Source: Candidatus Iainarchaeum sp. (GTDB lineage Archaea; Iainarchaeota; Iainarchaeia; Iainarchaeales; DTGL01). From it: DNA of 64,000 nt. The translations under genes and the position numbers were made by a program. Below are positions 7,953 to 43,015 of this stretch, in pieces (position 1 is the stretch's first letter; each line of letters opens with the position of its first letter). Location: positions 20,519 through 84,518 of the forward strand of contig JAOAJX010000006.1 of assembly GCA_026413945.1 (NCBI GenBank), written 5' to 3'. The notes under the pieces are model-generated. The model ran no database searches and was not told where the DNA came from. It saw only the letters and a program-made list of their open reading frames with translations.

Positions 7953-8711
7953 TTAAATATCATTTATTCTTGTACAATTAAGGCTGTTTGGACCTATTAA
8001 GCTCTCATTTTCTACTCCAGGTAGCATTCCTGCTGAATGCCACATTATAAGGCCGGTGAATATGACTACGCTCTTACTTTCTCTACCGCTGTAAGAAGGA
8101 ACAAAGCGCTTGAAAAGAAGCGTAATAACCCTTGTGCTTGTGGAATTTGGTGCATGTTTGAGAACAAGGTTTAAGGCGCGATTAAGCTTTAATTTTGGCT
8201 CGCAAAAGTATTCCAAGCGCTCTACGTTTTGTGGCCCCTTTATATCGTTTATTTTCATATAGACAAAAACAAAGCGATCTGTTTGATTTCCAGTTGGATT
8301 TCCTGTTGGTTCAGGTGCATAATCTGCTGGGGTCCAAAAATATAAGATATAGTCATAGTTTACTGCTCTCGGGGACATTATTTTGTCAAGGACCCTCTTT
8401 GCAAGAATTTTTGTATCATTTGCTATTGTTCCTGTGTTTGCATAATCCTCTTTCATCTTTGTGAGAAGCCAATCAACCTCATCTGCTGTTTCTAACTCGT
8501 CTGATGTGAAACGCGGTATGCTTGAATTAAGCATTGCACGCAATGCAGAAGATGCATAATCTTCATTGAAGTACTTATGAATGTTTATTTCAACGCCACG
8601 GCCGTACGAAAACGAAATATAAGCCATTCCAGCAGCAAGTGTCGCAACAATTACTAGCATAAAAAGTGCATCTGTTATTGAAGCCTGTGCCTTTTCACAT
8701 TTCATTCCCAT
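7953..8711 (-). CDS. Pilin-like protein with class III signal peptide
   Basis: MKCEKA|QASITDALFMLVIVATLAAG: basic leader, A|Q cleavage site and hydrophobic helix. Last gene of a tightly packed minus-strand operon. Confidence 0.75.
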   Translation of the reverse strand: MGMKCEKAQASITDALFMLVIVATLAAGMAYISFSYGRGVEINIHKYFNEDYASSALRAMLNSSIPRFTSDELETADEVDWLLTKMKEDYANTGTIANDTKILAKRVLDKIMSPRAVNYDYILYFWTPADYAPEPTGNPTGNQTDRFVFVYMKINDIKGPQNVERLEYFCEPKLKLNRALNLVLKHAPNSTSTRVITLLFKRFVPSYSGRESKSVVIFTGLIMWHSAGMLPGVENESLIGPNSLNCTRINDI

Positions 8712-9205
8712 ACCACCACTACCAAAAGCATTGGTTTTGTTATTGGTTTTCTCAGCGCACTATTATCTTTATAAGATACAGGCACCATGTGGACTATAAC
8801 ACGGCTGTTTAGCTTAAGCTTTTGTTCTATCTCAAGTGGGCAAGAAAAAAAGTTACCGTCTTGTGAAAATATTCTTTTACCTTCGTTCACGAAAGCATAT
8901 ATATCTATGTGCTCAAATGGTTGATTAAGGTCTACAATACCAGCCCTAAAATTATAGCCACGAGGATTAAGGCCATAGCAGATACTCTCAAATTCAGCAT
9001 AATCATCTATTTCACGATCACTCTTAAGAAAGCTGGCAATGCTCATTGCATTAGAAGTTAAGCTAAAATTGGCAGATGTTTGCCTGTATATTGTATGGGC
9101 GCTATAGAAAGATGCAAAGAAAATAAGCAATGCAAATATCAGTGGAACCAGGCTTGGTAGGTCATCACCAATTGGACCAATATAGCCAGCAGCTCTTTTA
9201 AACAA
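8702..9205 (-). CDS. Pilin-like protein (class III-type leader)
   Basis: MFKRAAG|YIGPIGDDLPSLVPLIFALLIFF, then a Cys-containing globular part ending LLVVVVWE. Overlaps the next gene. Confidence 0.65.
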   Translation of the reverse strand: MFKRAAGYIGPIGDDLPSLVPLIFALLIFFASFYSAHTIYRQTSANFSLTSNAMSIASFLKSDREIDDYAEFESICYGLNPRGYNFRAGIVDLNQPFEHIDIYAFVNEGKRIFSQDGNFFSCPLEIEQKLKLNSRVIVHMVPVSYKDNSALRKPITKPMLLVVVVWE

Positions 9206-9886
9206 TTAAACCCCCCAGCATGTTGGAGCATCCCTGCTTATGCAGTCAGCAATGTTAACATTGAAGCAGTTGCTCAAATCTTTTCTTTTCCTGTACAAGT
9301 AGCAGCCGACTAACTGTTTGTTTTGCTCGCAAATGCCTTTGGCAGTAGTTGAACACGGTATCAGATAAAGATATGGTTTGCCCTTATAAATCTCATGAAC
9401 CACAGTAAGTTGATCCATCGTTATTGGTGCAGATCTAACATCAAGCACTGTTCTTTCTGTAGGACACAAAAGCGCTTCCTTTTGGTCATATGAAAATATT
9501 TGTATATCTGAGTTTAGGTCAAGCTGCGAAGAGCTCACTACTGTTGGATTACCACGCTTCTTTAGGTAATCGTTGCGTTCAATAATTGCAATTATAAGGT
9601 GCTGTTTGCCTGAAGTTAAAGATGTCTCTTTTCTCAATTCTACTACATAATAAAAGTCCATAAGGTTGTAAAAAGAGTACTTCCGTCTAAAAGCAATCTC
9701 TTGTGAATCGCAAAGGGCTTTTTGGCTCACCACACGAGAGATTGTTTCGGCAGAGCTGCTTGCAATATTTTTAGAGATGTCATAAAGCAACGTTGACCTA
9801 AATGAAAACGCAAATCCAACAATTATTGCAAATAAGGCAATTGCAAGTATTAAAAGATTGATTTTGCTCAGCGTAAATTCCATCAT
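9206..9886 (-). CDS. Pilin-like/minor pilin protein without an obvious cleavable leader
   Basis: N-terminal hydrophobic helix MEFTLSKINLLILAIALFAIIVGF, Cys-rich C-terminus, inside the pilin operon. An in-frame TAG a few codons upstream rules out a longer leader. Confidence 0.6.
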   Translation of the reverse strand: MMEFTLSKINLLILAIALFAIIVGFAFSFRSTLLYDISKNIASSSAETISRVVSQKALCDSQEIAFRRKYSFYNLMDFYYVVELRKETSLTSGKQHLIIAIIERNDYLKKRGNPTVVSSSQLDLNSDIQIFSYDQKEALLCPTERTVLDVRSAPITMDQLTVVHEIYKGKPYLYLIPCSTTAKGICEQNKQLVGCYLYRKRKDLSNCFNVNIADCISRDAPTCWGV

Positions 9887-9890
9887 AAAA

Positions 9891-10442
9891 TCACTTTTTG
9901 TAATATGCGCAAACTATTGGAAATGTCTGCCTCGGGGGTGTTTCGTTGACCAAATCATAGTGACCTATTGGCATGTTATCGCGAAGATCTATTAGCGTGT
10001 AACCTTCGGAAGACCTGTCTGGACAATTATCAAGCGTTGTTGGGAAGTAAACCTGCACTGCAGTTTTAAGGCAAAATCGCTCAACAAAATCTTTGCTGTC
10101 AAACAAAATGAAAAGGCATGCAGGAGTTGCTATATCACATGCGGAAGCACATATTACTTCATCAGTTGTAGAGACAACTTTTATCCTCTGGTTTCTATAG
10201 CACGATGGTGGGTTAAAGTAAAGCTTTGACCGGCTTCTTAATTCAGAGACGTTTTCAAGCTCAGAGCGAAATTTTTCAATGCTTGCCCTTAAGCGATTTT
10301 TGCAATCCTGATTAAGCATATCGCTCATTACCATAAAACCAATGTAGAGGACGAAACCCATTATTATCACAGCAATTAAAACCTCAAAAGGCGCAGATTC
10401 TTGCGCCTTTTCATGCATTCTGCTTTTAACCGTAGATATCAT
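9891..10442 (-). CDS. Cys-rich pilin-like protein with class III signal peptide
   Basis: Start reassigned to ATG 10442 (overlaps the upstream TGA as ATGA) or ATG 10418: MISTVKSRMHEKA|QESAPFEVLIAVIIMGFVLYIG. The ORF-track extension to 10610 is out-of-frame overlap with the small pilin. Confidence 0.75.
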   Translation of the reverse strand: MISTVKSRMHEKAQESAPFEVLIAVIIMGFVLYIGFMVMSDMLNQDCKNRLRASIEKFRSELENVSELRSRSKLYFNPPSCYRNQRIKVVSTTDEVICASACDIATPACLFILFDSKDFVERFCLKTAVQVYFPTTLDNCPDRSSEGYTLIDLRDNMPIGHYDLVNETPPRQTFPIVCAYYKK

Positions 10443-10606
10443 GAAGTCACACTCTTTGTTGTTTTTGTCACTATCTTTTGGGTATTTTGGTACATTGGTT
10501 TTATAATATATATAATGAGAAGCGCAACAATTGCAAACACAAGGATTAAGTAAACTGCAGACCAATCGCCTTGGGCCTTTTCTTCTGGCAAGATGCCTTT
10601 TTTCAA
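10439..10606 (-). CDS. Small 55-aa Flp-sized pilin-like protein (not in ORF track)
   Basis: TTG start after GGTGGTGTGA. Translation MKKGILPEEKA|QGDWSAVYLILVFAIVALLIIYIIKPMYQNTQKIVTKTTKSVTS*; its stop overlaps the next ATG. Confidence 0.8.
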   Translation of the reverse strand: MKKGILPEEKAQGDWSAVYLILVFAIVALLIIYIIKPMYQNTQKIVTKTTKSVTS

Positions 10607-10716
10607 TCACACCACCATTAAATTAGAATATGCTTTGGACTATATAAAGTTTTTCAATTTAGTTAAATTTAATAATAAGTTAAAATATCAATCCTAAAGA
10701 AGAGGCGTGAATTAAA
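10607..10716. promoter_or_regulatory. Divergent promoter region between the pilin operon (-) and the ATPase operon (+)
   Basis: AT-rich 110-bp gap with TATA-like TATATAAA (10641) and TTTAATAA (about 10668); SD-like GAGGCGTGA before 10717. Confidence 0.55.
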
Positions 10717-12996
10717 ATGAAGATTGGCGGTTTTAAAGTAGGGGAATATGCATTTAAGGAAGAGGGCAAAAAAAAGCATCTTGTATTTGATTGTGCCTCA
10801 TGTGTTTATCATGCATCAATATCCGATGACCGCGTTTGCATGTATCATGTGCTTTATGCACTCAATGAGATAGATGCAGATGTAATTGTACTTTCCGAGG
10901 TTTATGAGAGGATATATGATGAAAAGCAAACCCTTATTTTGAAAGAAATTGTAAAGCTTATTCAAAAGTTCTCGATGGAGGCGCCTTGGTCATACAATAA
11001 CCTTGTCAATCCGCAATACCTTAAGGATGAAGGCGTTGTAAGTGCAAGACATAAAATGATTGTAACTATAACTCATGACCTAATAGCATATGATCCACTC
11101 GGTGCCTACTTTGCATGTCTGCGTGAAATTAACAGGGAAAAGGAAACGTTCTCTAGCAGCGGCCCTGATTACAAAGCAGGTTCTGCTATTTACCTCAAGA
11201 CACTGCTTTACATTAAAAGTGCATTTGAGGAATGCGAACTAATAAAGCAGACAAAGAAGTTTTTAACTGAGCTCAAGGAGATGCCTGAATTTAAGGAAAT
11301 TTATAGGGCTTTGTTTGAAGCGCAAATAAAGCCGGCCTTTATCGGATCGCGTCTTGTTTTTAGAGAAGAAGAAGGCATGGAGCTTCTCGATGAGTATTTG
11401 GTTAAGAATAGCACAGTCCAGATATTTAGCCATCCAAACCAGACACAAAATCTTTACTTCATAAATCCCCCCGAATATACTTTGAGCCCAGAAAAATATT
11501 TCGTACTTAGCAAGGCAAAAGAGATTGTCTCTGGCTATACGCCGGGCAAGGCATCACTGAGCACAGTTGCAAAATCGAGGGAGTATTTTGAGCGTTTATA
11601 TAGAAGCACTATAATGGAAATAGCACAACAGCATAACATCTCGCTAAACAAAAAAGAAATTGTTGAACTCAGCGAAATTGTTGCAAGATACAGCGTTGGT
11701 TATGGCATACTTGAAATACTTCTAAGCGACAGGAAGCTCACAGACATCTACCTTGACTCCCCAATAGGCCAGACGCCGCTCTATGTTATGCACTCTGATT
11801 TTGATCAGTGCCTTACAAATGTCCTTTATACAGAAAGGGAAGCATCTGCGCTTATCACAAAGCTCAGAGCTATGAGCGCAAGGCCTTTTGATGAAGTACA
11901 TCCAGTGCTTGATTTTGACCTACCTGAGCTCGAGACTAGGGTAGCAGCTATAGGACCGCCACTTGCACCAGATGGCGTTGCTTTTGCATTCCGCCTACAT
12001 AAAATAACGCCTTGGACATTGCCTCAATTCATAGATGTAAAATACCTAAATCCTTTGGCTGCTGGATTTATTTCATTCTTAATAGATAATCAAGCAACAA
12101 TGCTTGTAACTGGTTCAAGAGGCTCTGGCAAGACATCTTTGCTTAGTGCATGCATCCTTGAAATTCCTAAGAACACAAGGATTATTGTGCAAGAGGACAC
12201 GCTTGAAATACCCGTAGAATACATGAAAAAAGTTGGTTTTAACATACAGCGCCTAAAAACAAGATCGCCCATAAGTGTGTCAAAAACTGAAGTTGAGGTT
12301 GAACCAGAGGAAGCGCTTAGGACTGCCCTGCGCTTGGGCAACAGCGCGCTTGTCATAGGAGAGGTGCGTTCAAAAGAAGCAAGAACATTATACGAAGCGA
12401 TGCGCATAGGTGCCGCAGGCAATGTTGTAATTGGCACAATACATGCTGACTCAGCCTATGCTGTTTGGGATCGTGTTGTTAATGACCTTGAAGTTCCCAC
12501 CACTTCTTTCAAGGCAACAGATATAGTTGTTACGGCACGCCCAATAAGGTTTTATGGCTCATTAAAAAGTAACAGACGGGTTGTTGAGATAACAGAAATA
12601 AGGAAGCATTGGATTGAGGAACCTGCAAGAGAAGGCGGCCTTTTAGATCTGATGAGATATTCTGCAAAAGAAGATAATCTTGAGCTTTTGGAGGACAATC
12701 TTAAAGAGTCTGAGCTTTTTGATAAAATCTCGAGAATATCTGGACAAACCCTTGAAGAGATGTGGAAAGATATAAGAATGCGTGCAGAGTCAAAGCGCTA
12801 CCTAGTAGAAATGAAAAACAAGCATGATATACCTGAGTTATTAGAAGCTGACACTGCATCAATGGCAAATGACAAGCTTATGCTTCTGAGGGAAAAACAA
12901 ATCAGAGAGTTTGGCAAAGTAAACTATGATGAAATTCTTGAGCAGTGGAAGAAATGGCTAAATGATAAAATAATACCAAGGCTTATAAAGAAATGA
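10717..12996 (+). CDS. Type II/IV secretion system ATPase (VirB11/TadA/FlaI family)
   Basis: Walker A GSRGSGKT, Asp box QEDTLEI, ALRTALR, Walker B LVIGEVR, His box GTIHADSA. Long N-terminal domain with CxxC...C. Confidence 0.95.
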   Translation: MKIGGFKVGEYAFKEEGKKKHLVFDCASCVYHASISDDRVCMYHVLYALNEIDADVIVLSEVYERIYDEKQTLILKEIVKLIQKFSMEAPWSYNNLVNPQYLKDEGVVSARHKMIVTITHDLIAYDPLGAYFACLREINREKETFSSSGPDYKAGSAIYLKTLLYIKSAFEECELIKQTKKFLTELKEMPEFKEIYRALFEAQIKPAFIGSRLVFREEEGMELLDEYLVKNSTVQIFSHPNQTQNLYFINPPEYTLSPEKYFVLSKAKEIVSGYTPGKASLSTVAKSREYFERLYRSTIMEIAQQHNISLNKKEIVELSEIVARYSVGYGILEILLSDRKLTDIYLDSPIGQTPLYVMHSDFDQCLTNVLYTEREASALITKLRAMSARPFDEVHPVLDFDLPELETRVAAIGPPLAPDGVAFAFRLHKITPWTLPQFIDVKYLNPLAAGFISFLIDNQATMLVTGSRGSGKTSLLSACILEIPKNTRIIVQEDTLEIPVEYMKKVGFNIQRLKTRSPISVSKTEVEVEPEEALRTALRLGNSALVIGEVRSKEARTLYEAMRIGAAGNVVIGTIHADSAYAVWDRVVNDLEVPTTSFKATDIVVTARPIRFYGSLKSNRRVVEITEIRKHWIEEPAREGGLLDLMRYSAKEDNLELLEDNLKESELFDKISRISGQTLEEMWKDIRMRAESKRYLVEMKNKHDIPELLEADTASMANDKLMLLREKQIREFGKVNYDEILEQWKKWLNDKIIPRLIKK

Positions 12997-13008
12997 AGTC
13001 GTGGTTAT

Positions 13009-15366
13009 ATGCCTGAAAGAGCGAAAAAAAGCACTGGTTACACAATAGGTCAGCTTTACAAAGGCATTGTTGTAGAGCGCGGCTTACCTGAAGAAGGTGA
13101 AAGCAAGCTGATGAAAAAAAAGATGCCAAGGTATGTGCGGTTCTGCAAGAGAGTTGCAAGAATGGTGCCTGCGATGGGCGGGCAGAAAAAATTTCCAGAG
13201 GAGCACAACAATGCAATTGAATTTCTTGGCTGGGATCTTAGACCAGAAGAGTTTTCAGCAGCAGTCAACTTCATTGCACTAATTCTTGTTTTTTTAGCTT
13301 TCGCTATTTGGCTTGTAGTTGTATCTAGCCCAATTGCCAAAGCGCTTTCGACAGTGCCTTACAGTGCGTATGCATTGCTTGCTATGCTTGTGGTTGCCGC
13401 ACTTTCAGTAGCAAATTATATTTACCGTTATCCAATATCAGCTGCACAGGCAGAACAGAAAAAAGCCCTTGGGTATATACCTGAGATTGTAGGTTACATG
13501 ATAATGTCAATGAAGTTAACACCAAATCTTGAAAAAGCGGTTGAGTTTTCTGCAGACCACGGAAGGGGCAAAATAGCTGAAGAGTTTAAGAAGCTCACAT
13601 GGGATATAAGCACTGGAATATATACAACCATAACTGAGGGGCTTGACAGAGTTGCATACAGATGGGGCTCTTATGCGCCGGAATTCAAGCGTGCACTAGT
13701 TAGGATAAGGGCATCAGTGCTTGAGGACACTGAAGCAAAAAGGGATGCGGTGCTAAACAAAACCATGGATGAGCTTCTTGCCACCATTAAAGAAAAAATG
13801 GATGCTTATGCAAGAAGCTTAAGGCAGCCTGCTGTTGTGCTTTTTTTTGTGGGTGTGCTTTTGCCACTTATCCTCATGATAATACTGCCTATTGGTTCAG
13901 TATTCAGCGGCTTGCCACTTGCAAATCCTCTCGTAATAATTGCTTTGTACAATGTAGCAATACCTCTTGGGTTGATTTATTTTTCATTAGGGATTTTAAA
14001 GCAGCGACCGCCTACACAAGAAGCACCAGAGATACCCGATGATTATCCAGGATTACCACCAAAAAATAAAATTAGGTTTGGAAATAATTATATTGACATC
14101 TTCTTGTTGGTTGGAATTGTTGCTTTTATTGGCATAATTGCTTCTTATTATTTTCATCAGGAAGGCTTTCCCCCAAAAAGCATGCTTAGGTCAGAGTATG
14201 GCGAAAAACCTTCTCAAATTATAAGAGCTGACCGCACTGAAAAAGAGGTACTTGAAAGAAGTGGTTACCCAGAAGATTATTTTGATATACCTAATGGTGT
14301 GCTTTATAAGCAATATTTGAGCAGTTATTCAGAAAGTAGTAGCGCTGACATAGAGAAAAAGGCAGAAAATAAGGTTTTATTTGAAAAAAAAATATTCTTT
14401 ATGACAAAAGAAAATGATATAACGCCCTACAATCTCTGGTTTGGGCTTATATTAACTTTTTCCATCTGTCTTTTCATCGTTTTATATTATCCGGCGAAAT
14501 ACAAAAGAAAGATACAGCTTGAAATATCAGCCATGGAAAGCGAATTTAAAGATGCACTTTATATTATGGCTTCACGTCTCGGAGAAAACAGGCCAATGGA
14601 AGAAGTGCTCAAGCAAACTATTGATTTTTTACCTAACGCAGTAATAAGCAAACAAGTGTTTTCAAAAACAATTGATAACATCACTCTTCTTGGAATGCCT
14701 TTGGACAGCGCTGTTTTTGATCAAAAGTTTGGCTCTGTTGCAAGGATACCCTCTGAAGTTATAAAAACCGGGATGCGCCTTGTAGTAGATGCTTCAACCT
14801 TGGGCACGAGTATTGCTGCAAGAACATTGGCATCTTTGTCTATACAGCTTGATAACACTGAAAAGGTTGCAAAAGCGCTGAAGGAAATGATTGATGAGAT
14901 AACAGTAACAATGCGCACCATGGCAGTAATAATAGCCCCTGTTGTCTTGGGCATAACAACGGCACTTTTCAAGATAGTTGTGCTTACGATGGCTAGCATA
15001 TCACAAAGCTTAGAAGGAAGCAGCTTAGGTGGACTATCTGGAAACATACCAACTGTGGGGACAAGTGGAAGATATGGAAACCTTGGTGCTTTAACTGAAT
15101 CATTTGCAAAGGTAAGTGTAAGCAGCTTTGTAAAACCGGAAGCACTAGCACATATTGCTGATCCGCTGCAATTCATCATCATAAGCGGAATATATGTATT
15201 TCAAATTGTTGCTATAATCCTATACTTTGTAACAATGCTTGAAGAGCGAAATAAGCTTCTTCTCAGACTGAACATCGCAAAGTATCTTCCACTTGCTTTG
15301 GCAATATACATTGCGACAGTCATGGGCACCAACGTGCTTCTTGAAACGATGACAAGCGGAGTGTAA
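13009..15366 (+). CDS. Type II secretion F / TadB-TadC fused (FlaJ-like) membrane platform protein
   Basis: Two repeated cytoplasmic-domain plus TM modules (PEIVGYMIMSMKLTPNLEKAVEF and EFKDALYIMASRLGENRPMEEVL); directly downstream of the ATPase. Confidence 0.85.
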   Translation: MPERAKKSTGYTIGQLYKGIVVERGLPEEGESKLMKKKMPRYVRFCKRVARMVPAMGGQKKFPEEHNNAIEFLGWDLRPEEFSAAVNFIALILVFLAFAIWLVVVSSPIAKALSTVPYSAYALLAMLVVAALSVANYIYRYPISAAQAEQKKALGYIPEIVGYMIMSMKLTPNLEKAVEFSADHGRGKIAEEFKKLTWDISTGIYTTITEGLDRVAYRWGSYAPEFKRALVRIRASVLEDTEAKRDAVLNKTMDELLATIKEKMDAYARSLRQPAVVLFFVGVLLPLILMIILPIGSVFSGLPLANPLVIIALYNVAIPLGLIYFSLGILKQRPPTQEAPEIPDDYPGLPPKNKIRFGNNYIDIFLLVGIVAFIGIIASYYFHQEGFPPKSMLRSEYGEKPSQIIRADRTEKEVLERSGYPEDYFDIPNGVLYKQYLSSYSESSSADIEKKAENKVLFEKKIFFMTKENDITPYNLWFGLILTFSICLFIVLYYPAKYKRKIQLEISAMESEFKDALYIMASRLGENRPMEEVLKQTIDFLPNAVISKQVFSKTIDNITLLGMPLDSAVFDQKFGSVARIPSEVIKTGMRLVVDASTLGTSIAARTLASLSIQLDNTEKVAKALKEMIDEITVTMRTMAVIIAPVVLGITTALFKIVVLTMASISQSLEGSSLGGLSGNIPTVGTSGRYGNLGALTESFAKVSVSSFVKPEALAHIADPLQFIIISGIYVFQIVAIILYFVTMLEERNKLLLRLNIAKYLPLALAIYIATVMGTNVLLETMTSGV

Positions 15367-15371
15367 CTGCA

Positions 15372-15818
15372 ATGATGAACAAAGGTTATTTTTGGCCTTT
15401 TAGGTTGTTGATTGCAACAATATTTGCGCTTGCGATGCTCACAATAATAATTTCTGCTTTGGAGTACTTCAAAAATGTGGAAAGATCAACAAGCTACGAG
15501 AGGTTTGAAAACGGCTTCAAAAATGCGCTATATGCTGCAAGCAGCGATCCAAGTTATGGCTTGGCAAAAGAGAAAAACATCACAATTGTTGGAATAATAA
15601 CAGCAGGCCAATTTTCAGAAAAATACAAAATACCCTCAGAATGCATAGAGTTTCAGGCAATAAGCGGCATGCTAATAAAGCTCTCAGAAAACAAGCGAAG
15701 GGTTATCATTGAGAAGGAAATAACGATTGATGTTTATTTCCATTGCATACGATACAACGTTGGAGAATGCGAAATAAAATGCTACATATCCTTTGGCAAA
15801 GCGCCAAAAATTGGTTAA
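15372..15818 (+). CDS. Pilin-like protein with class III signal peptide
   Basis: MMNKG|YFWPFRLLIATIFALAMLTII and a C-terminal Cys cluster; resembles the next gene. Confidence 0.75.
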   Translation: MMNKGYFWPFRLLIATIFALAMLTIIISALEYFKNVERSTSYERFENGFKNALYAASSDPSYGLAKEKNITIVGIITAGQFSEKYKIPSECIEFQAISGMLIKLSENKRRVIIEKEITIDVYFHCIRYNVGECEIKCYISFGKAPKIG

Positions 15819-15836
15819 AGGTTACATTGGCTATAC

Positions 15837-15892
15837 AAAAGGTTTAAATATAAGAAATAGTATTCTTATGAAATATAACTCGTGAGGTGAGG
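15837..15892 (+). promoter_or_regulatory. BRE/TATA promoter and strong SD for the pilin gene at 15895
   Basis: AAAAGG-TTTAAATA (TATA at 15843-15850) and GAGGTGAGG at 15884-15892. Confidence 0.6.
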
Positions 15893-15894
15893 AT

Positions 15895-16497
15895 ATGATG
15901 CGTATGAATTCAAAAGGGCAGGCTTTCTCAACATTCCAGCTGCTTATATCTGCAATAATTGCGCTGGCTATACTTGTGATCCTGCTTTCCGTGCTAGGAA
16001 TAATTCCAAATCTTTTCAATATATCCCAGAATCCAGTGGATGCGATGGTTGACAAGATAAAAGATGCGAGGAACAAGCCAGCCGTGCCAGTACAAGGCGG
16101 TAAGGTAAATTTCACAAAGGACAACAGAACTGTTACAACTGAAAGCATAGCAAGTGTAAGTGGTGTTGGTCTTGAAAAAGAACAAATATGCTTAAGCCCG
16201 GGCCAATTTATGGGCCAAGCAGAAATAATCAGCAAAGGCCAAGATGGTTCAAAAGAGAAGCAATGGACTGTAGTAGAGGATGGTTCAAGGATAACTTACA
16301 ATAAGGACAATGTGCAGACAACATTTACAGTTATTTGCCATTCTTCAGCGACAAGGCTCAAGACTTACATTGAAGAGGATCTTCCAGAGATAAAGGTAGA
16401 GTGGATGGACAGCGGCTCTTTTAAGTGCAAGTGCCTTGATAATGAGCAATTCAAGGAGCAGCCATGTTGCCTAATAGTGCTTAAATACTCTAGCTAA
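15895..16497 (+). CDS. Pilin-like protein with class III signal peptide (candidate major pilin)
   Basis: MNSKG|QAFSTFQLLISAIIALAILVILL, Cys-rich C-terminus, own promoter and strong SD. Confidence 0.8.
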   Translation: MMRMNSKGQAFSTFQLLISAIIALAILVILLSVLGIIPNLFNISQNPVDAMVDKIKDARNKPAVPVQGGKVNFTKDNRTVTTESIASVSGVGLEKEQICLSPGQFMGQAEIISKGQDGSKEKQWTVVEDGSRITYNKDNVQTTFTVICHSSATRLKTYIEEDLPEIKVEWMDSGSFKCKCLDNEQFKEQPCCLIVLKYSS

Positions 16498-16510: not shown

Positions 16511-17161
16511 ATGGCCAAAAAAAGCGCATCTAAGAAAAAAAGCCCCAATACTTTTATAGGACACTCTTGGCAAAGATTTAGCAAACAGAGCTTGAAGAAA
16601 GAGCTTTTGGCATCAGCAAAGTTTCTAATTTTTTTTCTGATTTCTTTTTCCATTATTTTCATTATTTTTTCTTTTCTGCCAATAGAAATTTTCGAATTTT
16701 TCACAGCAAAGATATCTGCAGCAATTCTCGAAGCCGTGGGCTATTCTACCAAAATAATAACCGATGAACCCGTAAAGATTATTGTGAACTCTAAACACAC
16801 GATTGAGATAAGCTACCTATGCACAGGAATTATTGAAACTATCGTGGTTGTAAGTGCGGTTGCAGCATCACTTGGAATAAGTCTCAAGAAAAGGCTCATT
16901 GGTGCTTTGGCAGGAGCTATTTTTGTGAATGTGCTTAATATATTAAGGATAATTGTAACAATCGTTGCAATATCGAATCTGAAAGATATTGGCTTTGTGG
17001 ATTTTATACATAATGTGCTTTTCAGGGCAACTCTTTTTGTGGGCATCGCTGTTTATTATGCTGTCTGGTTTTTTGCCTCAACAAGAAGCTTTAATCCAAT
17101 AGCACGTTTTAAGCTATGGCTTTTCCCTAAAATAAATTGTAGAAGAAACAAAAAACAATAA
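16511..17161 (+). CDS. Exosortase/archaeosortase family membrane transpeptidase
   Basis: Multi-TM protein with the family catalytic triad in the expected spacing: EISYLCTG (Cys), LNILRI (Arg), FIHNVL (His). Confidence 0.9.
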   Translation: MAKKSASKKKSPNTFIGHSWQRFSKQSLKKELLASAKFLIFFLISFSIIFIIFSFLPIEIFEFFTAKISAAILEAVGYSTKIITDEPVKIIVNSKHTIEISYLCTGIIETIVVVSAVAASLGISLKKRLIGALAGAIFVNVLNILRIIVTIVAISNLKDIGFVDFIHNVLFRATLFVGIAVYYAVWFFASTRSFNPIARFKLWLFPKINCRRNKKQ

Positions 17162-17231: not shown

Positions 17232-20200
17232 ATGTTAACAGATAAGCTCGGCTCTATTTACGCAGGCATAGAGGAGAAATGGTTTGAGCTGCTTAAAGCA
17301 CTGCAGGAAAAAGGCATTCCTGCGTATAGCTATGCTGAGTTCTTAGAAAGCAGGGGCATACCATCTTTGCCTTTTACAATAGCCATCATAATACTCCTTC
17401 TTGTAATTTTGTTTTCATTTTCTTTTGGGGGCGCATACACGGATGTGAGCTTAACTGTTACAATAAGGGATGATCAGGGGCAATCGCTAAGTGATGTCAA
17501 GCTCGAATTATATAATGACGATGGGCAAACACTTAAAAGTGAAACTGTGCAAAGTGGTTACAAGATTGAACTTAAAAGAGTTAAGATTGGCTCAACCATA
17601 ACAGCATCTGCTTCAAAATCTGGTTACAGAAGTGCTTCGGCCGAAAAAGAGATAAATTCCAAAACCGCAACTATAAGCATAACACTTAAGAGAGAGGCAA
17701 GGCTTGTTTCTGCAAAAGTCCGGCTCATCGATGAGCTTACCTCAACCTTGATCAGAGATGCGAGGTGCGAAGTTTCTTTTGATAAGAATACATTAGGCAT
17801 TACTAGAGACTATGATGGCTTGTTTTTGGTAAATGTGCCACAGAAAACAGATGTGGTGCTAAAATGCACAGCTAATGGCTATGAAGACCTTCAGGAAGCA
17901 ATGCGATTTGATGACGGTGAAATCAAAGTAGTAAAGTTGAAGCCAAAATCGGTTGATGTTAATTTAAGCACTCTACTGATAAGCGTATATGACGAGGAAA
18001 CAAAGCAGCTTATAAAAGGGACAAGCATTCGCATTATAAACTCATCAACAGGCGTCACGATAACAGACATTAATTCACAGAGCGGCGATTATACTGAAAA
18101 GATAAAGATAAACACCCAGGTTAGGATAATTGTAGAAAAAGCAGGTTATATGAGCTATGTTGAAGATTTCACCATAAGAACCGCAGAGGTTGTTAAGAAA
18201 ATATACTTAAAAAAAGGCGGTGCACAACTTATAGTAAATGTTACCTCAAAGGATGGCATTGTGCAAGTAAATGCTGATGTTTCGCTTTTTGACTCAAACT
18301 TCCAACTCGTTTCTGCAAAAAAAACTGCCGTTTTAGGGAATGCTGCTTTTGATGGTATTGATCCAAACAGGGATTATTATTTTAATGCATTCAAAGAAGG
18401 TTTTCTGCCGGCTTATGGAAGAATAAGTGCAGGGACCAAAAGCTTGGATATTAAACTTGAAAAGCCAACAGCACAAAATTCTGCATTGGTGAAAATAACA
18501 GTTAGGAACAGCTCAGGCAATATTACAAACAATGCAGCGCTGAAATATTATCGCATTATAAATGCATTCAAGATTCCTCTTGGCATTCCTGTGAGAAAAA
18601 CAGGGCTTACAGGCACAATTATAGAAACCCTTCCAGAGGGTACATTCCTTATAGCTGCCGAGACTGAAGTAGAGTATGGTGAAAAGGAAATAACAGTGAT
18701 GGCAGGCATCGACCAACAGGTTGACATAAACATGTCAAGAAAGCCAAACTTTGTTGAGCTTCGATTAATTGATGGGAATGGAATGCCTTTGAAGGGAGAA
18801 GTTATTGTAAAGAGCAAAAGCGGAAAGACACTTTTTGCTGGAAATGTAAATGGGGGCGCGATTTTTGACAGTGAGATGAATGAAAGCTTTTTGGTGAGCG
18901 TGAAAACGCCTGATGGCAAAACATTTGAGCAGGAAGTAAGGGTTGGCGCAAACAATGTTGCTGAAGTCCGATTAGGGGCTGATAAAAAGGAACTAACAGA
19001 TGGTGTCAAGCCCATAATAGAGTTTGCTGGAGTTTTTGATTCTGGAGGAAAAAGCATTGAAGGAGTTACGGCTGGGGAGTTTGCTTGGCTGCGTTTCAAT
19101 GTCAGTTTTCCCCAGGGTGAGAAAACAGGCATACATATAAGGGTTGGGCCTGATAGCATTGCGTCTGCCGATGCCCAAGAGATTGGAATTTTTGGTTTTG
19201 ATGGAAATGCAAGCAGCTTTGTGTATGGCAAAAGCTATCAGGCACCTTTAGGTGAACAAAAGGATCTTGCAAGCAAAGGTGCAGCGAATGAGAGAAACAA
19301 ATGGCTTGAGCTTTACTTTAACAAAGCACCATCGCAAACAGCAGTAAGCATAAAGGTAAAAACAGATAATATAAGCAGAGAAAAAGACTTTGAAGTACAC
19401 TACAGAGCTTGGAGCGAAATAGGTACAAAAGTATTCAGAGACCCTGCAGACAGCGTGCTTGGAAATGAGAAAACAAGCAATGCAAAGCAAGCGCTTTATG
19501 CTGAAACAAAGATTGCAAGAGTAAAGGTATTTGAAGGAAAAGCAAGCTGCTCTGAAGAACTCTGCATAGCTCTTGCTTTAATAGACTCAAACAATGTGAA
19601 GGTTAAAGAAGATGGTTTCTCTGCAGTTGAGGGTCAAACATATGCTCTAGAAATCTCTGTAAATTCTGGCAAAAAGATGAGTGCTGAAATTGTAGTAAGA
19701 AGCGAAAACTCAAATGTATTGCTTTCAGAGCTTACCGAAGATGTGTTGTCCTTTAGCCCGAAGGGAGAATTTTCAAAGACTGAGTTAAGGGGCTCCTTAA
19801 AACTCGAGGCAAATTCTTCAAAAATTGTAAGGGCTTACTTCAAAGGCAAGTCAGCCGGTACAGCAACGCTTGAGGCCCTTGTTAGGAGCGGAGACCTGAA
19901 CGCAAATAAAAAGATAAGTTTCAATGTAACTGGAAGCAAAGAAATGCTTGCTGAAATTTATAAGAAAGGTGAAATAAAGGCAGGTGAAAAGCTAAGAGTT
20001 ACCTTAAGGGATTCTGAAACAAAGGATCCCATCACAAATGCTTTTGTTTCAATAACAAGGGAAGGTGAGGTGCTTTTAAGCACTACTGGAAACAACACAA
20101 ATGAAAACGGTGCAAATGGCATTTATGTCTTGGGTATAGATAAGCTAAGCCCGGGAAAGTATGTGCTGACAGCTAAGGCAGTTGGTTACAAAGATGCTTC

Positions 20201-23200
20201 TTTCCCAATAGTAATTTCAGCAGAAAAGTTACTTTCAATAGAACCACAATTAGAAATAATGCTAAATAAGGGCGAGAAACAAAGAAGCGCAAAGCTGAAG
20301 CTTACAAATGGCTCATTTGATGTTATAGATAAGCTTGGTTATGAAGTAAAAGGCCTAAGCGGGGATACAAGCGATTTTAACATCATAGTTGCTCTGCCTC
20401 CAAAAATAGATGTCAGCAGAACCATTGATATTGAAGTGGTTGCCATATATAAAGGAGATGTTGAGAAAAGAGCATATGCTGAATTTGAACTTATTGTTAG
20501 TGGATCTGAAAACCCAGTAGTAACTGCAAAAAGCAAAATAAAGGTTTCATACAATAAAGAGATTCCACCAGAGTGCATTGAGATTGACAAAAGTGAGGCT
20601 GAGATGCATTTCTCAGGAATTGCTGGCTCAGCTGAAGTCTTGCCTTTGACAATAACATACAAAAATGAAGCCTTTTGCAATAAGCCGCTTACATTCACGC
20701 CCAAGATGAAAAGCGATGATGATAAGCTTGTGCTAAGTGCACAGCCCTTCACCATAGTGCCTGGTGAAAATAAGACTATTGAGCTGAAAATAACAAACAA
20801 TGCAGAAAGAGTGGGTGTGTTTGAGCAAAAAGTAGAAGCTACGGTATTCCTAGAAGCACCCGAGGTTACGAAAAGCATTAGCTTGGGGATATTATTTACA
20901 GATCCTGCTTATGCGCTCCAGACGAATGATAACATACCGATATTCATGAGTTTTGATGTTGCAAAAGGCAGCTTTAGCGGAACAGCACCTTTGTTTGCGA
21001 AGAACTTTGGCAAAAAGGTTATTGAAAATATAAGGTGGAGCGTTAAGCCACCACAGCAGATTGAAATTTATATAACTTCTACAACCGGCAGTGGTAGTGG
21101 ACAGCCACAGAACATTCCCAACCAGCAAATGCCTGGAATGCAAAATTTCATGCAAGCACCAAACACGCCTTACATACAAGGAAACCCTTCAATGGCCGGA
21201 ACCCAGTTTGCTGTAACCCTTGCTCCAGGCGAAGAAATGGAACCAAAAACAGTATTGGCAACAAGCACTGCAGCTAACCTCACAAGAGGGCCTCACAAGG
21301 GCGAGATAATACTGACTGGAACTGTCGATGGCAAGCAGTTCCAAAAAGTAGTTTCGATATGGGTATTTGTTTCAACAGCACAATGCATAAAAGTTGCCCC
21401 AGCTGATGAGCTTTACTTCTCAAGTGAGGATTCATCTCAGGGTGTAATAGCAAAGAAGATAACAATAAAGAACGAATGCGGAGAAGTAGCCAGGAACTTT
21501 ATCCTAAAGCCCCAAAACCTTGGAAACAACACTTTGAGCATAACACTTCTTGGCAATAAGGACTTTTTGTATCCTGATGAAAGTGCACAAGCACAAATAG
21601 TTCTTACAAAGCGCGGTGATTACTTCAATGCTCAAAGGCCTGATAACATAATTGTTAGTGTTTTCCTAGTAAATAGCCAGAAATTTGTTGATTCTAATCC
21701 CTTGCCTGTGCTTATTGAAGTAGGAAAGAAGCCAGATGTATCTGCTGGTCCAGTTTATAAAGAAGTGCAAATACCTGTTTGCGGCGAAACATCTTCAGTT
21801 AAAAAATCAGTCCAGTTCCCTGTAATGAGTGCAGATATTGGCTGTGATTCTGGCTACTGCGACGCAGTGCAGCTTTCTGGCTATATTGTGGAGCGCATAA
21901 AAGGTGTGATGCAAAAAGTTGACAAAGTGCTGCAGCAAAACGATTTGGTGAGCAGCTATGCTATGTGCAGCCAGTTGGAAGGCTTCTGCAGCTTTTCTGC
22001 AATGGGCATAGTGCCTGAAGTTTACACAGTTTATATGAGAAATGATTCTTTTGGAAAAGAAGTTCTGCAAAGAAGGGTTGAAAGCTCAAAGGAGTTTGCA
22101 ACATTTGTAACAGAATATTTCCAAGGCGATGTTAGTGAGATAGTAAAGAGCGCAACTGGTTTCACAACAAGCAAAATATTCATGACAAAGCCTCTTGTTG
22201 GCTGCGGTCGCTATAAGATATCAATACAAGGCGCTGTGCAGAATATTCAAGGGCGTTTGTCAAGAGAAAACTACTTTATACTTGTAAAAATTGTTGAAGA
22301 TAGGAAAGTTACGCCTGAGTGCATGATGCGTATCCAAAACATTGCAAATTTCTTACCATTAGATCGTGGGCTTGCTGCTGACAAACATTATAATACCTGG
22401 CTCGGAACAACCGAGGGTTTGGATGCCACACGTAAAGCAGCTGAGCTTTTTGCACAAAAGCTTTTTGATGATAAGAGCAGAGTTAATGTTGCATATCACA
22501 CGAATAAGCTTAAAGTTATTCTCGGTGAAATACCTGAAAGCGGCATTGCAAAGATTTCAATGAACCAGGTATCGCAACAGCAGGCACAGCCTGCAACCCT
22601 TGGCGTTACAATAAATAAGCTTTATGTTACGCTTGACGAAAAGATGCAGGATGAAATGATTGCAAAAGCATCTGAAGCGCTTAAGCAACTCATGGAGGGC
22701 TCATTTACTGTTGAGGGCTGCATAACAAAGGATGACTCTGCACTTGTAATATCAAAGCTCGAGCACACCGGCGACCTTGACATTGAGAAAGCATCAGACA
22801 CAATTGAACTTTACTATAGTATGCCTATGTGCGTTGATATGAACGTAGTTAGCACAGTTCTTGAGCCGGTGGTGCTAAAAACAAGCTTTGCTTCGATGAA
22901 AGACAATGAAAAAGCAGGTATTCAGGATGTTTGGATTGAAGTCGATGGCAAGAGAATTTCAGAGTACTCTGAAAGGCAGGAGGGGACGCCAATCACACTT
23001 GAAAAAGAGGGTGGAGAAGAAAGCAAAAAGTTTAAGAAAAGCTTTAAACTATGCGTAAAGGCAAATGATGCTTACTTTGAGCTTGCTGCAGGCAAGAAGA
23101 TTGGTGTGAAAGCCAGAAGCGTTATATTTGCAACTAAGGAGATGCGCTCATGGAAGGAAGTAACACTTGAGCTTTGTGGGATACACCCATATAAGCTAAT

Positions 23201-25310
23201 TCAAAAGATGTCTAATGAAAAAGTAGAGCCTGGCAAAAGCAAGGTTTTTTATGCAACGGTTGGCTGGAAAGGCGAGCCAAATGAGATTGACTTTGCTGCT
23301 ACAACTAGGGGTTTGACTGCAAGCGATCGCTTGAAAAGAGCACAAGAGCTCATGGAAGATGTTGGCAAAGGCGGCCGCATTGATGATTCGCCAATAGGCC
23401 AGAAAATATTGGGCCTGAAAAGGCAGGGTTATGGGCTTTATTTCGGTGCTTGCTTAGCCGTATCTTTCATCTGCCATGTAGTTACAGGTTTAGATCCTCT
23501 TGGCATTAGGGCTCTAATAAATGCCATGATCGACTGTTTGCCTGCAACAATAGGGGGGCTTTTTGGCACTACAAAAGCGGGGCAGGGGTTCCAAAAAGCT
23601 TTAAACGATGCTTGGGAAAAGGTTAAATCAAATCTTAGATGGTTCTATGCGCCATGGAGCAGCGGAAAGGCAACTCCAAATACAGAAGCGGGGCTTTATG
23701 GGCAAGCAATGGATGAATTCTGGGATAATGCAGTGCCTGCTGCAATATTGGGCTTTGAGGCAGATTGGCTTGCAACAGAATTGCGCTCTTATGTTTACTC
23801 AAGAGGTTGGGCAAACAAGACAATAGGTAGCACCGAAGCCATAGATACAATTGCTGAACAGATGGCAAAAGATGCAACACAAAAGTTTACCTCAAAGTAT
23901 CTAAAAGGTGTTACGACGGCAGCATCGGATGATTTTATTAATGCTTTTACCCCTCAGTTACAGAGTTCATTACAAGAAAGCATTTCAAGCACATTAAGAA
24001 AAAACAGCAGCATGACATTTGGAAAACTTATTCAAGATAAAGCGGTTATGCAAAGCATGTGGCAAAAGGCAACGTCGGATGAGAAAATAAAAACGCTTGT
24101 TTACAGCAAAGGGTTTGGCCGCGGAGCAGAAATAGAAAAACTTATTAGCAGCCACGCTGAAGATTTCCTTAGAAAAAGCGTTGATCCTAAAGATATAAAA
24201 GAAATTTTTGGCTCAAGCTCTGTCAGCCAAGAAGATCTCGCAAAGGCAATTGTAGATCAGATAGATAGCGCTGGATACAAAACATATGGAGTTAGGTTAA
24301 CAAAGGATGTGCGAAAAGGTCTAATTAGTTCAGCAAAAAAGGGTATTAGCAAGGGTCATATTTATGCAGATAGTATAGAGGGACAAGTGAATAATGCCTT
24401 AAAACACATACATATGGATAGAAGTAATGAGCTCATGCAAATTTATGGGCAAAATGTACTTGACAATCTTGATGATGTAATGGCCCAACCAAAGCAGCCC
24501 GGGGCTTTTAAGAGAATGATTGAGGCAATGAAAACAAGGAGCTTTTGGGCACGCTTGGCAAAAAGCATTGCCTGTGGCGCTGTTTCAAATGCTGCAGGAT
24601 ATGCTGCTTATTCAAGCCATGTAAAAGGCGGGATTGAAGAACTTATGGACAAGGGGTATATTCCAGAGGCGGGAGTCAGCGTTGGAGATCCTTCAAAGCT
24701 TATCAGCGGCTACACAGGCCCTAAACTTATGAAAAATAGGACTTACAAGATAACAATAAGCAAGGATGATTACGGAAACATAAGCTACAATCTTGAGCTT
24801 GTGGATACAGAAAAAGAAATAGAAGAAATGCGCGCTGCCATAAGCAAAAACCCTTCTGCACTGTGGCGCGAAGATTGTAAAGAGTACCGTGAAAAAGGCC
24901 TTTCTGAAATGGTCGGTTGCTTGGCACCAAAAACAGGTGATTACATAAAGCCAGAAGAGGTTGTCGCTTACTACAAAAACAGCGGCTTTATAAGGGAAGC
25001 TTCAATACAATTCAATGTGCACGAAGCGCTGATAATGGCTGCGCTTACAACAAGATTTGAAAACTTCGAGCCGTGCCCTGTAAACCAGAAATGGTACGAA
25101 GGCGAAGACAGTGAAAGAAAGCTCACCATAAAATGCGTAGCAATGCACATAAGTGAGAAGCTTGCAGCAAATCAGGATAATATAAGGTCTGCATTTGAAG
25201 TCCTTAGCAAAGAAAGGTCTGCTGATAAAGCAAGAGCCTACGCGATGGATGTCGAAGCTAAATACAGGATGTGGAAAACATACGACACATGCAAAGGAGA
25301 AGGGGGCTAA
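17232..25310 (+). CDS. Giant membrane-anchored surface protein A (2692 aa), carboxypeptidase-regulatory-like/Ig repeats, conserved core, C-terminal helical and SLT-like extension
   Basis: N-terminal signal anchor, repeated VxxxD..G.P....V / A.K.GY beta modules, and core motifs KWLELYF, RDPADSVLG, LYAET, GYCDAVQ. Confidence 0.85.
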   Translation: MLTDKLGSIYAGIEEKWFELLKALQEKGIPAYSYAEFLESRGIPSLPFTIAIIILLLVILFSFSFGGAYTDVSLTVTIRDDQGQSLSDVKLELYNDDGQTLKSETVQSGYKIELKRVKIGSTITASASKSGYRSASAEKEINSKTATISITLKREARLVSAKVRLIDELTSTLIRDARCEVSFDKNTLGITRDYDGLFLVNVPQKTDVVLKCTANGYEDLQEAMRFDDGEIKVVKLKPKSVDVNLSTLLISVYDEETKQLIKGTSIRIINSSTGVTITDINSQSGDYTEKIKINTQVRIIVEKAGYMSYVEDFTIRTAEVVKKIYLKKGGAQLIVNVTSKDGIVQVNADVSLFDSNFQLVSAKKTAVLGNAAFDGIDPNRDYYFNAFKEGFLPAYGRISAGTKSLDIKLEKPTAQNSALVKITVRNSSGNITNNAALKYYRIINAFKIPLGIPVRKTGLTGTIIETLPEGTFLIAAETEVEYGEKEITVMAGIDQQVDINMSRKPNFVELRLIDGNGMPLKGEVIVKSKSGKTLFAGNVNGGAIFDSEMNESFLVSVKTPDGKTFEQEVRVGANNVAEVRLGADKKELTDGVKPIIEFAGVFDSGGKSIEGVTAGEFAWLRFNVSFPQGEKTGIHIRVGPDSIASADAQEIGIFGFDGNASSFVYGKSYQAPLGEQKDLASKGAANERNKWLELYFNKAPSQTAVSIKVKTDNISREKDFEVHYRAWSEIGTKVFRDPADSVLGNEKTSNAKQALYAETKIARVKVFEGKASCSEELCIALALIDSNNVKVKEDGFSAVEGQTYALEISVNSGKKMSAEIVVRSENSNVLLSELTEDVLSFSPKGEFSKTELRGSLKLEANSSKIVRAYFKGKSAGTATLEALVRSGDLNANKKISFNVTGSKEMLAEIYKKGEIKAGEKLRVTLRDSETKDPITNAFVSITREGEVLLSTTGNNTNENGANGIYVLGIDKLSPGKYVLTAKAVGYKDASFPIVISAEKLLSIEPQLEIMLNKGEKQRSAKLKLTNGSFDVIDKLGYEVKGLSGDTSDFNIIVALPPKIDVSRTIDIEVVAIYKGDVEKRAYAEFELIVSGSENPVVTAKSKIKVSYNKEIPPECIEIDKSEAEMHFSGIAGSAEVLPLTITYKNEAFCNKPLTFTPKMKSDDDKLVLSAQPFTIVPGENKTIELKITNNAERVGVFEQKVEATVFLEAPEVTKSISLGILFTDPAYALQTNDNIPIFMSFDVAKGSFSGTAPLFAKNFGKKVIENIRWSVKPPQQIEIYITSTTGSGSGQPQNIPNQQMPGMQNFMQAPNTPYIQGNPSMAGTQFAVTLAPGEEMEPKTVLATSTAANLTRGPHKGEIILTGTVDGKQFQKVVSIWVFVSTAQCIKVAPADELYFSSEDSSQGVIAKKITIKNECGEVARNFILKPQNLGNNTLSITLLGNKDFLYPDESAQAQIVLTKRGDYFNAQRPDNIIVSVFLVNSQKFVDSNPLPVLIEVGKKPDVSAGPVYKEVQIPVCGETSSVKKSVQFPVMSADIGCDSGYCDAVQLSGYIVERIKGVMQKVDKVLQQNDLVSSYAMCSQLEGFCSFSAMGIVPEVYTVYMRNDSFGKEVLQRRVESSKEFATFVTEYFQGDVSEIVKSATGFTTSKIFMTKPLVGCGRYKISIQGAVQNIQGRLSRENYFILVKIVEDRKVTPECMMRIQNIANFLPLDRGLAADKHYNTWLGTTEGLDATRKAAELFAQKLFDDKSRVNVAYHTNKLKVILGEIPESGIAKISMNQVSQQQAQPATLGVTINKLYVTLDEKMQDEMIAKASEALKQLMEGSFTVEGCITKDDSALVISKLEHTGDLDIEKASDTIELYYSMPMCVDMNVVSTVLEPVVLKTSFASMKDNEKAGIQDVWIEVDGKRISEYSERQEGTPITLEKEGGEESKKFKKSFKLCVKANDAYFELAAGKKIGVKARSVIFATKEMRSWKEVTLELCGIHPYKLIQKMSNEKVEPGKSKVFYATVGWKGEPNEIDFAATTRGLTASDRLKRAQELMEDVGKGGRIDDSPIGQKILGLKRQGYGLYFGACLAVSFICHVVTGLDPLGIRALINAMIDCLPATIGGLFGTTKAGQGFQKALNDAWEKVKSNLRWFYAPWSSGKATPNTEAGLYGQAMDEFWDNAVPAAILGFEADWLATELRSYVYSRGWANKTIGSTEAIDTIAEQMAKDATQKFTSKYLKGVTTAASDDFINAFTPQLQSSLQESISSTLRKNSSMTFGKLIQDKAVMQSMWQKATSDEKIKTLVYSKGFGRGAEIEKLISSHAEDFLRKSVDPKDIKEIFGSSSVSQEDLAKAIVDQIDSAGYKTYGVRLTKDVRKGLISSAKKGISKGHIYADSIEGQVNNALKHIHMDRSNELMQIYGQNVLDNLDDVMAQPKQPGAFKRMIEAMKTRSFWARLAKSIACGAVSNAAGYAAYSSHVKGGIEELMDKGYIPEAGVSVGDPSKLISGYTGPKLMKNRTYKITISKDDYGNISYNLELVDTEKEIEEMRAAISKNPSALWREDCKEYREKGLSEMVGCLAPKTGDYIKPEEVVAYYKNSGFIREASIQFNVHEALIMAALTTRFENFEPCPVNQKWYEGEDSERKLTIKCVAMHISEKLAANQDNIRSAFEVLSKERSADKARAYAMDVEAKYRMWKTYDTCKGEGG

Positions 25311-27007: not shown

Positions 27008-27117
27008 ACAGAATATTAAAGGACATTTTAATGCATTTAAATTAAAGATAAGATTAATAAATCACAAATAACTATATAGATACCAAAAAAGCCATTAAAG
27101 ATAGGCGGTTGGTTTAA

Positions 27118-34437: not shown

Positions 34438-34511
34438 TGCGAATTATAAAAGCTTAGTCAATAAACAAAAAATATATTAATATTAGAGGCGTATTAAAGT
34501 TAGGGATATCT

Positions 34512-42992: not shown

Positions 42993-43015
42993 CGCAATTA
43001 CTAACAGGGATAGTT

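Follow-up and report, generated by a model that had tools for sequence, protein, structure and literature searches.

Experimental work on archaeosortases is confined to haloarchaea, where ArtA acts on the S-layer glycoprotein of Haloferax (PMC6098224). The logic set out there is that a large surface protein, exported by the Sec pathway and carrying a tail made of a motif, a transmembrane (TM) segment and basic residues, is cut and then re-anchored (PMC6098224). In Haft's work, the signals of exosortases and archaeosortases have a motif that abuts the TM segment, and dedicated systems are recognized by enzyme and target being encoded in nearby genes (10.1101/2023.06.07.544157). The one-enzyme, one-target systems described there, JDVT-CTERM with MrtJ for example, provide the second point of comparison for the locus analyzed here. 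The sequence under study, referred to as the window, is a stretch of 64 kb on contig C18 of a 0.95-Mb genome (G000) that is 92% complete.

The 216-residue product of the gene of interest (the sortase; Table 1) is a member of the exosortase/archaeosortase family. It scores 35.1 bits against the superfamily model TIGR04178 (cut-off 23) and 26.6 bits against PF09721 (cut-off 25.7). A HMMER scan of 1.84 billion representative proteins returned 252 relatives at E-values up to 0.001, 103 of them at E-values up to 1e-10. The alignment combines the query, its two close homologues and the 62 best representatives less four short fragments (P0029, P0046, P0056 and P0058), which leaves 58. All 61 aligned sequences match TIGR04178. 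Cys104, the presumed nucleophile, is invariant in this alignment together with Arg146 and His167, so that the intact Cys/Arg/His triad of the original prediction holds across the aligned sequences; Asn143, Gly106 and Glu109 are likewise invariant.

The AlphaFold2 (AF2) model of the sortase (pLDDT 87.9, pTM 0.79) contains helices at residues 25–54, 58–75, 107–118, 125–156 and 160–191 and a three-stranded sheet at 80–100. Cys104 lies just before helix 107–118, and the model brings the three triad residues to the same ends of helices 107–118, 125–156 and 160–191. The N-terminus, a KKR loop (residues 126–128) and the C-terminus are all strongly basic. Based on the positive-inside rule, these basic segments would place the triad at the outer face of the membrane in a predicted arrangement of four membrane passes. 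Neither sequence search nor Foldseek returned a solved structure that resembles the sortase. With its invariant triad and four-helix core, the sortase is best read as a catalytically intact archaeosortase; its subfamily is unnamed.

By HMM scores, the sortase is placed outside ArtA and every other named subfamily. The ArtA model (TIGR04125) does not match it at E-values up to 1, and neither the pacearchaeosortase (NF033505) nor the heimdallarchaeosortase (NF045528) model gives a match. Six further models score below their curated cut-offs: ArtD (TIGR04175; 37.6 bits, cut-off 125), XrtX (NF046081; 35.8 bits, cut-off 170), XrtG (33 bits, cut-off 102.75), XrtH (32.7 bits, cut-off 86), XrtM (25.5 bits, cut-off 125) and XrtF (22.5 bits, cut-off 90). 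The first five are similarly compact, at about 150–190 residues, and give the best partial matches, which extend over most of its length, but the scores are far under the cut-offs. A similar picture is obtained with the 61 relatives. The ArtA model matches only four of them (best E 1.2e-4); NF033505 weakly matches 11 (best E 1.7e-7) and NF045528 five (best E 3.3e-5), and the best E-value to any named subfamily is 2.9e-14, for XrtX. ArtA–H, XrtX, XrtG, XrtH, XrtM, XrtF, pacearchaeosortase and heimdallarchaeosortase were all rejected as identities on these scores. The substrate side gives no match either: a search of the 92%-complete genome for PGF-CTERM (TIGR04126) returned zero hits at E-values up to 1. 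The combination that was to count against the original prediction, a housekeeping ArtA with PGF-CTERM substrates, was found in neither of its parts by these model searches.

The sortase is a near-universal core gene of its order within the Iainarchaeia (Diapherotrites, DPANN). Its clade is present in 112 of the 121 genomes sampled, including all 51 of high quality, and it extends to two further families of the class. The labels on close homologues read Candidatus Diapherotrites or Iainarchaeum, and one weak relative carries the label Micrarchaeota. The original prediction had proposed a system-specific subfamily. This stands insofar as no named subfamily fits by HMM; the gene is a core component of the order, not a rare extra. 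In the search listings, no paper pairs an archaeosortase with Diapherotrites or Iainarchaeota. One relative, the public metagenome representative P0142 (1,102 aa), has its sortase domain (residues ~14–184) fused, or read through, to a pilin-like protein that is large and Cys-rich and resembles the 563-aa protein of the window.

A second sortase-family gene is present in the same genome. Its product has 176 residues, is about 22% identical to the first, and is found in 108 of the 121 genomes. These C17-type paralogues form a clade of their own (SH-aLRT 95) in a tree that covers the two local paralogue clades. The second paralogue lies directly downstream of the gene for CDP-archaeol synthase (CarS). 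Ten of 11 related loci preserve this adjacency, a hint that the paralogue is connected with lipid anchoring.

The first sortase sits where a type IV pilus module meets a set of giant surface-protein genes. From the left end of the window, the gene order is ORF1, a 512-aa anchored protein, a PAC2-family gene, four minus-strand pilin-like genes, the ATPase T2SSE, the platform protein T2SSF, two further pilin-like genes, the sortase, giant A, a 563-aa pilin-like protein and giants B, C and D. Thirteen base pairs separate the stop codon of the 200-aa pilin-like gene from the start of the sortase, and giant A begins 70 bp after its end; this agrees with the placement originally described. The same surroundings recur in related loci. 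Of 15 that were retrieved with 10 close sequences as query, 13 contain a homologue of giant A, usually directly downstream of the sortase, 10 contain the ATPase, often divergent from the sortase, and three contain a homologue of ORF1; one contig of 5.7 kb shows none of the three. In two related MAGs (L011 and L014), the start of the sortase gene is overlapped by the gene for a protein of about 205 residues that has a signal peptide and a tail of N-P-[SI]-I-L-P, a TM segment and basic residues. The 512-aa protein encoded directly after ORF1 is built like the giants, with a cytoplasmic N-terminus and one TM segment, and gives weak CarboxypepD_reg/PEGA-like matches after it.

Inspection of the C-termini found no motif/TM/basic tail on the pilin-like proteins, the 563-aa protein or the giants of the operon, as had been predicted, and an internal hydrophobic hairpin of the giants, read by eye, does not show this pattern. 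The 64-kb window also contains no prepilin peptidase, again in line with the prediction; the three Peptidase_A24 matches of the genome are all on contig C11.

Table 1. Positions of the genes, codons and motifs discussed in the text. Numbers without a prefix are positions in the window; prefixed numbers give contig (C, genome G000) or related locus (L).
Feature	Position	Strand	Basis or remark
ORF1, 1,525-aa secreted surface protein, candidate substrate	2..4294 in window	+	translation
ORF1, full gene	G000:C18:20235-24812		5' end 284 nt upstream of window
ORF1 tail, signature motif NLPSLPE	4151..4171	+	translation
ORF1 tail, hydrophobic TM segment, 18 residues	4175..4228	+	translation
ORF1 tail, basic cytoplasmic part	4229..4291	+	translation
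512-aa anchored protein	4336-5874
PAC2-family gene, synteny control	5899..6651	+	PF09754, 128.7 bits
Four pilin-like genes of the pilus module	7953..10610	-	N-terminal hydrophobic pilin-like segments; homologues syntenic in related loci
T2SSE pilus ATPase (759 aa) and T2SSF platform protein (785 aa)	10717..15366	+	PF00437, 73.3 bits; PF00482, 25.2 bits
Two pilin-like genes (148 aa, 200 aa), directly upstream of the sortase	15372..16497	+	ORFs, pilin-like features
200-aa pilin-like gene	15895-16497
Archaeosortase gene, 216 aa, 'A1-type', unnamed subfamily	16511..17161	+	ORF with ATG start, HMM matches, AF2 model
Cys104 codon, presumed nucleophile	16820..16822	+	alignment, translation-checked coordinate
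Arg146 codon	16946..16948	+	alignment, translation-checked coordinate
His167 codon	17009..17011	+	alignment, translation-checked coordinate
Giant A, 2,692 aa, most constant neighbour of the sortase	17232..25310	+	homologue in 13/15 related loci
N-terminal region of giant A with the leader	17232-17429
IPSLP motif directly before the N-terminal TM anchor of giant A	17358..17372	+	[IL]P[SA][LF]P in 13/13 orthologues
563-aa pilin-like protein and giants B, C, D	25316..49906	+	none with a C-terminal sorting tail
Second sortase-family gene, 176 aa	C17:26321-26851 (L001:1273-1803)
Peptidase_A24 matches	C11:12443-12730, C11:68686-68997, C11:94281-94592
Class-A tail genes	C16:53320-55746, C16:109491-111797, C17:60968-62794, C17:63402-65318
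Class-A tail genes	C14:37272-40850, C18:4165-4632, C18:5307-6980, C20:828-3995
Gene for ~205-aa protein	L011:80-706, L014:9283-9900

The original prediction saw no obvious substrate adjacent to the sortase. This is correct for the adjacent genes; ORF1, in the same window, carries the tripartite tail that such a substrate would have. The protein has a signal-like N-terminal segment and a single C-terminal TM segment, and its tail consists of the motif NLPSLPE, two spacer residues, a hydrophobic run of 18 residues and a basic end. The gene is single-copy and present in 115 of the 121 genomes of the order, including all 51 high-quality ones. Among 30 orthologous tails, 18 contain NLPSLPE exactly, 22 contain LPSLP and 29 fit a relaxed pattern. 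The spacer between motif and hydrophobic run is 0–5 residues long in those 29 orthologues, and the TM and basic parts vary. The sole tail of the 30 without the motif (L036) is from G014 (contig C87; 76% complete), which is also the one genome among those examined where no sortase-family gene was found. Variants of the motif persist in more distant members of the class as LPLFPQE, LPWWPEN and LPSLGE.

ORF1 has no match in Pfam, NCBIfam or Atlas. A model of its C-terminal 560 residues (pLDDT 81.7) is beta-rich up to a disordered linker, followed by the motif and the helix. Foldseek matches this model to beta-propellers, with TM-scores of 0.12 or less that do not suffice to assign a fold. The tail in the window matches none of the curated NCBIfam CTERM families, and 32 tails give single sporadic matches only, the best being Loki-CTERM with one of the 32 (E 0.0022). 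Conservation and model searches mark the ORF1 tail as a signal of the sorting type, whose class is not covered by any curated model. The suggestion that positions 4154–4294 hold a new target motif has therefore gained in substance, with a conserved tail, the relaxed motif in 29 of 30 orthologues and no curated model.

The explanation we favor, and to which we give even weight for and against, is that the sortase and ORF1 form a dedicated enzyme-target pair with a new NLPSLPE-type signal. ORF1 would be exported by Sec and stay anchored through its C-terminal helix, from which the basic tail reaches into the cytoplasm. The Cys104/Arg146/His167 site, at the outer membrane face, would then cleave at or beside NLPSLPE, which abuts the helix, and the sortase would transfer the new C-terminus of ORF1 to an acceptor. 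A membrane lipid, the acceptor demonstrated for ArtA, is the probable one. The pair would be part of a conserved surface-structure super-locus made up of the giants, the sortase, the pilus module and ORF1. The sequence data show family membership, the invariant triad, the build and conservation of the tail, and the distribution and linkage of the two genes. The outward-facing site, the cleavage, the acceptor and the pairing itself are inferred, the pairing from comparative genomics.

How would such a pair compare with the described systems? With ArtA, the sortase shares the superfamily signature, the Cys/Arg/His set and, as proposed here, the cut-and-re-anchor logic described for it (PMC6098224). 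It differs in being much shorter and in lacking a match to the ArtA model; the proposed signal has NLPSLPE in place of PGF, PGF-CTERM finds no match in the genome, and the sortase appears to have one target where ArtA has many. The resemblance to the one-enzyme, one-target systems would lie in the single-copy target, the short motif abutting the TM segment and the shared neighbourhood (10.1101/2023.06.07.544157). The tripartite C-terminal domain of dedicated pairs, with its conserved motif abutting the TM segment, is found in ORF1. However, the JDVT-CTERM/MrtJ-type enzymes belong to another protease family and their genes are usually directly adjacent, whereas here the genes are typically 10–25 kb apart with the pilus module between them.

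We asked how closely the sortase and ORF1 genes are linked. Both are present in 109 genomes, in 40 of them on one contig, and in 35 of these 40 the distance is below 25 kb, with a median of 16.8 kb. In the window neighbourhood it is about 12 kb. Genomes from other families of the class show it too (about 13 kb in G121 and about 12 kb in G122), and in the complete or near-complete genomes compared for the second paralogue (G016, G015 and G029), that gene is more than 170 kb from ORF1. The sortase and ORF1 are never adjacent; the immediate neighbours of the sortase are giant A and the ATPase. As a control, the PAC2 gene was followed in eight genomes compared by eye. It lies beside ORF1 in all eight, including three (G030, G098 and G055) in which the sortase is far off. 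Gene order in this region is thus conserved for unrelated genes as well, which weakens the argument from linkage. PAC2 keeps its place by ORF1 also in genomes whose pilus, sortase and giant genes have been relocated; most genomes also have a second, more distant PAC2 paralogue. In G002 and G034, the sortase, ORF1, the ATPase and giant A are all dispersed. Co-occurrence does not discriminate between the readings either, because both genes are near-universal.

A first alternative, which we regard as unlikely, is that the sortase is a broad-specificity housekeeping enzyme for many C-terminally anchored proteins, partly overlapping with the second paralogue. Its substrates would include ORF1 and a second class of tails, of type '[AT][ASP]E', which we call class A. 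The genome encodes at least eight paralogous surface proteins of this kind (the eight in Table 1), all secreted, with an Ig-like module containing a Cys box towards the C-terminus, then an invariant Glu immediately ahead of the TM segment and a basic end; no NCBIfam CTERM model names these tails. A class-A-like tail is found 3.4 kb from the pilus-locus sortase in G058. In L007, L011 and L014, the gene immediately preceding the sortase encodes another secreted protein that ends in a TM tail, and four genomes that are 75–89% complete (G035, G064, G085 and G102) keep the ORF1 motif with only the other paralogue found. These three observations also count against a dedicated pairing with ORF1. Several observations oppose a broad role. 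Class-A tails were found in only 51 of the 121 genomes, compared with 112 for the sortase; all 10 genomes from the family to which the window belongs are among the 51. In five genomes (G118, G080, G092, G100 and G115), a class-A tail lies 3–5 kb from the CarS-linked paralogue. The separation of the two paralogues into distinct clades, with the C17-type branch support given above, also fits separate specificities. From these patterns, the two enzymes probably divide the labour, with class-A tails as the candidate targets of the CarS-linked paralogue.

The most constant neighbour of the sortase raises a second alternative. The leader of giant A is conserved and about 47 residues long, and it ends in [RKHN]-G-[IL]-P-[SA]-[LF]-P before the N-terminal anchor in all 13 orthologues. 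In the window, this leader is acidic and includes two [KR]-G-I-P repeats, with G-IPSLP as its last residues. Three of four further orthologues keep the motif; the one in G055 is without the second proline. A pattern derived from the ORF1 tails has only five matches in about 1,020 ORFs, and the two that are followed by a TM segment are ORF1 and giant A. With a relaxed pattern, a TM segment follows in two of 13 matches, against a background of 3.8%. The sortase might therefore act on the giants or the pilus, above all on giant A, by recognizing [IL]P[SA][LF]P and cleaving, releasing or coupling the giant during assembly. Consistent with this idea, and counting against the pairing with ORF1, giant A and the ATPase still border the sortase in G030, G098 and G055, where ORF1 is 121–197 kb away. 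Yet the motif precedes an N-terminal anchor. The Ig-like, Cys-rich bulk of giant A has to lie outside the cell, so that the motif is expected on the cytoplasmic side, whereas the triad of the sortase is predicted to face outward. No basic cluster follows the helix. A prepilin-type site of class III is likewise compatible with the conserved [RKHN]-G ahead of the motif, and the genome has three A24 peptidases; the leader could be an unusually long signal of this class. The sortase of G122 has no giant beside it, and the missing second proline in G055 also speaks against recognition. Since the motif appears to be on the wrong face and the glycine fits a prepilin-type site, we treat action on giant A as a competing explanation and consider it quite improbable.

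The third alternative concerns ORF1 itself. Its tail could be a permanent anchor, or could be cut by the CarS-linked sortase, a rhomboid or an Rce1-like protease, with the target of the sortase elsewhere. The genome does encode a rhomboid and an Rce1-like protease, which weighs against the pairing, and the PAC2 control indicates that the linkage between sortase and ORF1 may be inherited synteny. The other candidate enzymes are, however, unlinked to ORF1, and a seven-residue motif that is conserved across the order beside a variable helix is hard to explain for a plain anchor. We think this alternative improbable, to the same degree as a role on giant A.

The two LP-type motifs also allow a combined scheme, which we hold to be very doubtful. 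The sortase would handle both the ORF1 tail and the anchor of giant A, and might for instance join the conserved 1,500-aa surface protein to the giant adhesin or to the pilus apparatus. One [IL]PS[LF]P element would then act as leaving group, with the other as incoming partner or as a further substrate. Class C sortases of Gram-positive pilus operons act on LPXTG pilins. If coupling did occur, the enzyme described here would be an archaeal, non-homologous counterpart of these pilus-specific sortases. The likeness is that of a Cys/Arg/His transpeptidase-type enzyme whose gene lies within an operon for pili or adhesins, together with a motif of the 'LP...' type. The differences are an unrelated fold and the fact that type IV pili are not sortase-assembled. 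Finally, we rejected the sortase as a substitute prepilin peptidase, and the role in pilin maturation once suggested for it is unnecessary, because three A24 homologues are encoded elsewhere in the genome and the active site is predicted to face outward.

DPANN archaea depend on the cell surface for contact with hosts and neighbours, and the biogenesis of their envelope is almost unknown. What is new here, on the sequence comparisons presented, is an archaeosortase clade that spans the order, has a new candidate signal and sits, unusually, among pilus and giant-protein genes; the superfamily as such was already known. The dedicated pairing we favor is offered for testing as a core sortase clade with a core surface protein of about 1,500 residues and a new NLPSLPE-type signal. 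A second pair is suggested by the CarS-linked sortase and the invariant-Glu tails. Both pairs would allow curated models to be built for annotating the genomes of the order. The arrangement also raises the question of why the sortase has been kept at the junction of the pilus and giant adhesin genes. If the pairing holds, ORF1 would be nominated as the likely main envelope protein of the lineage.
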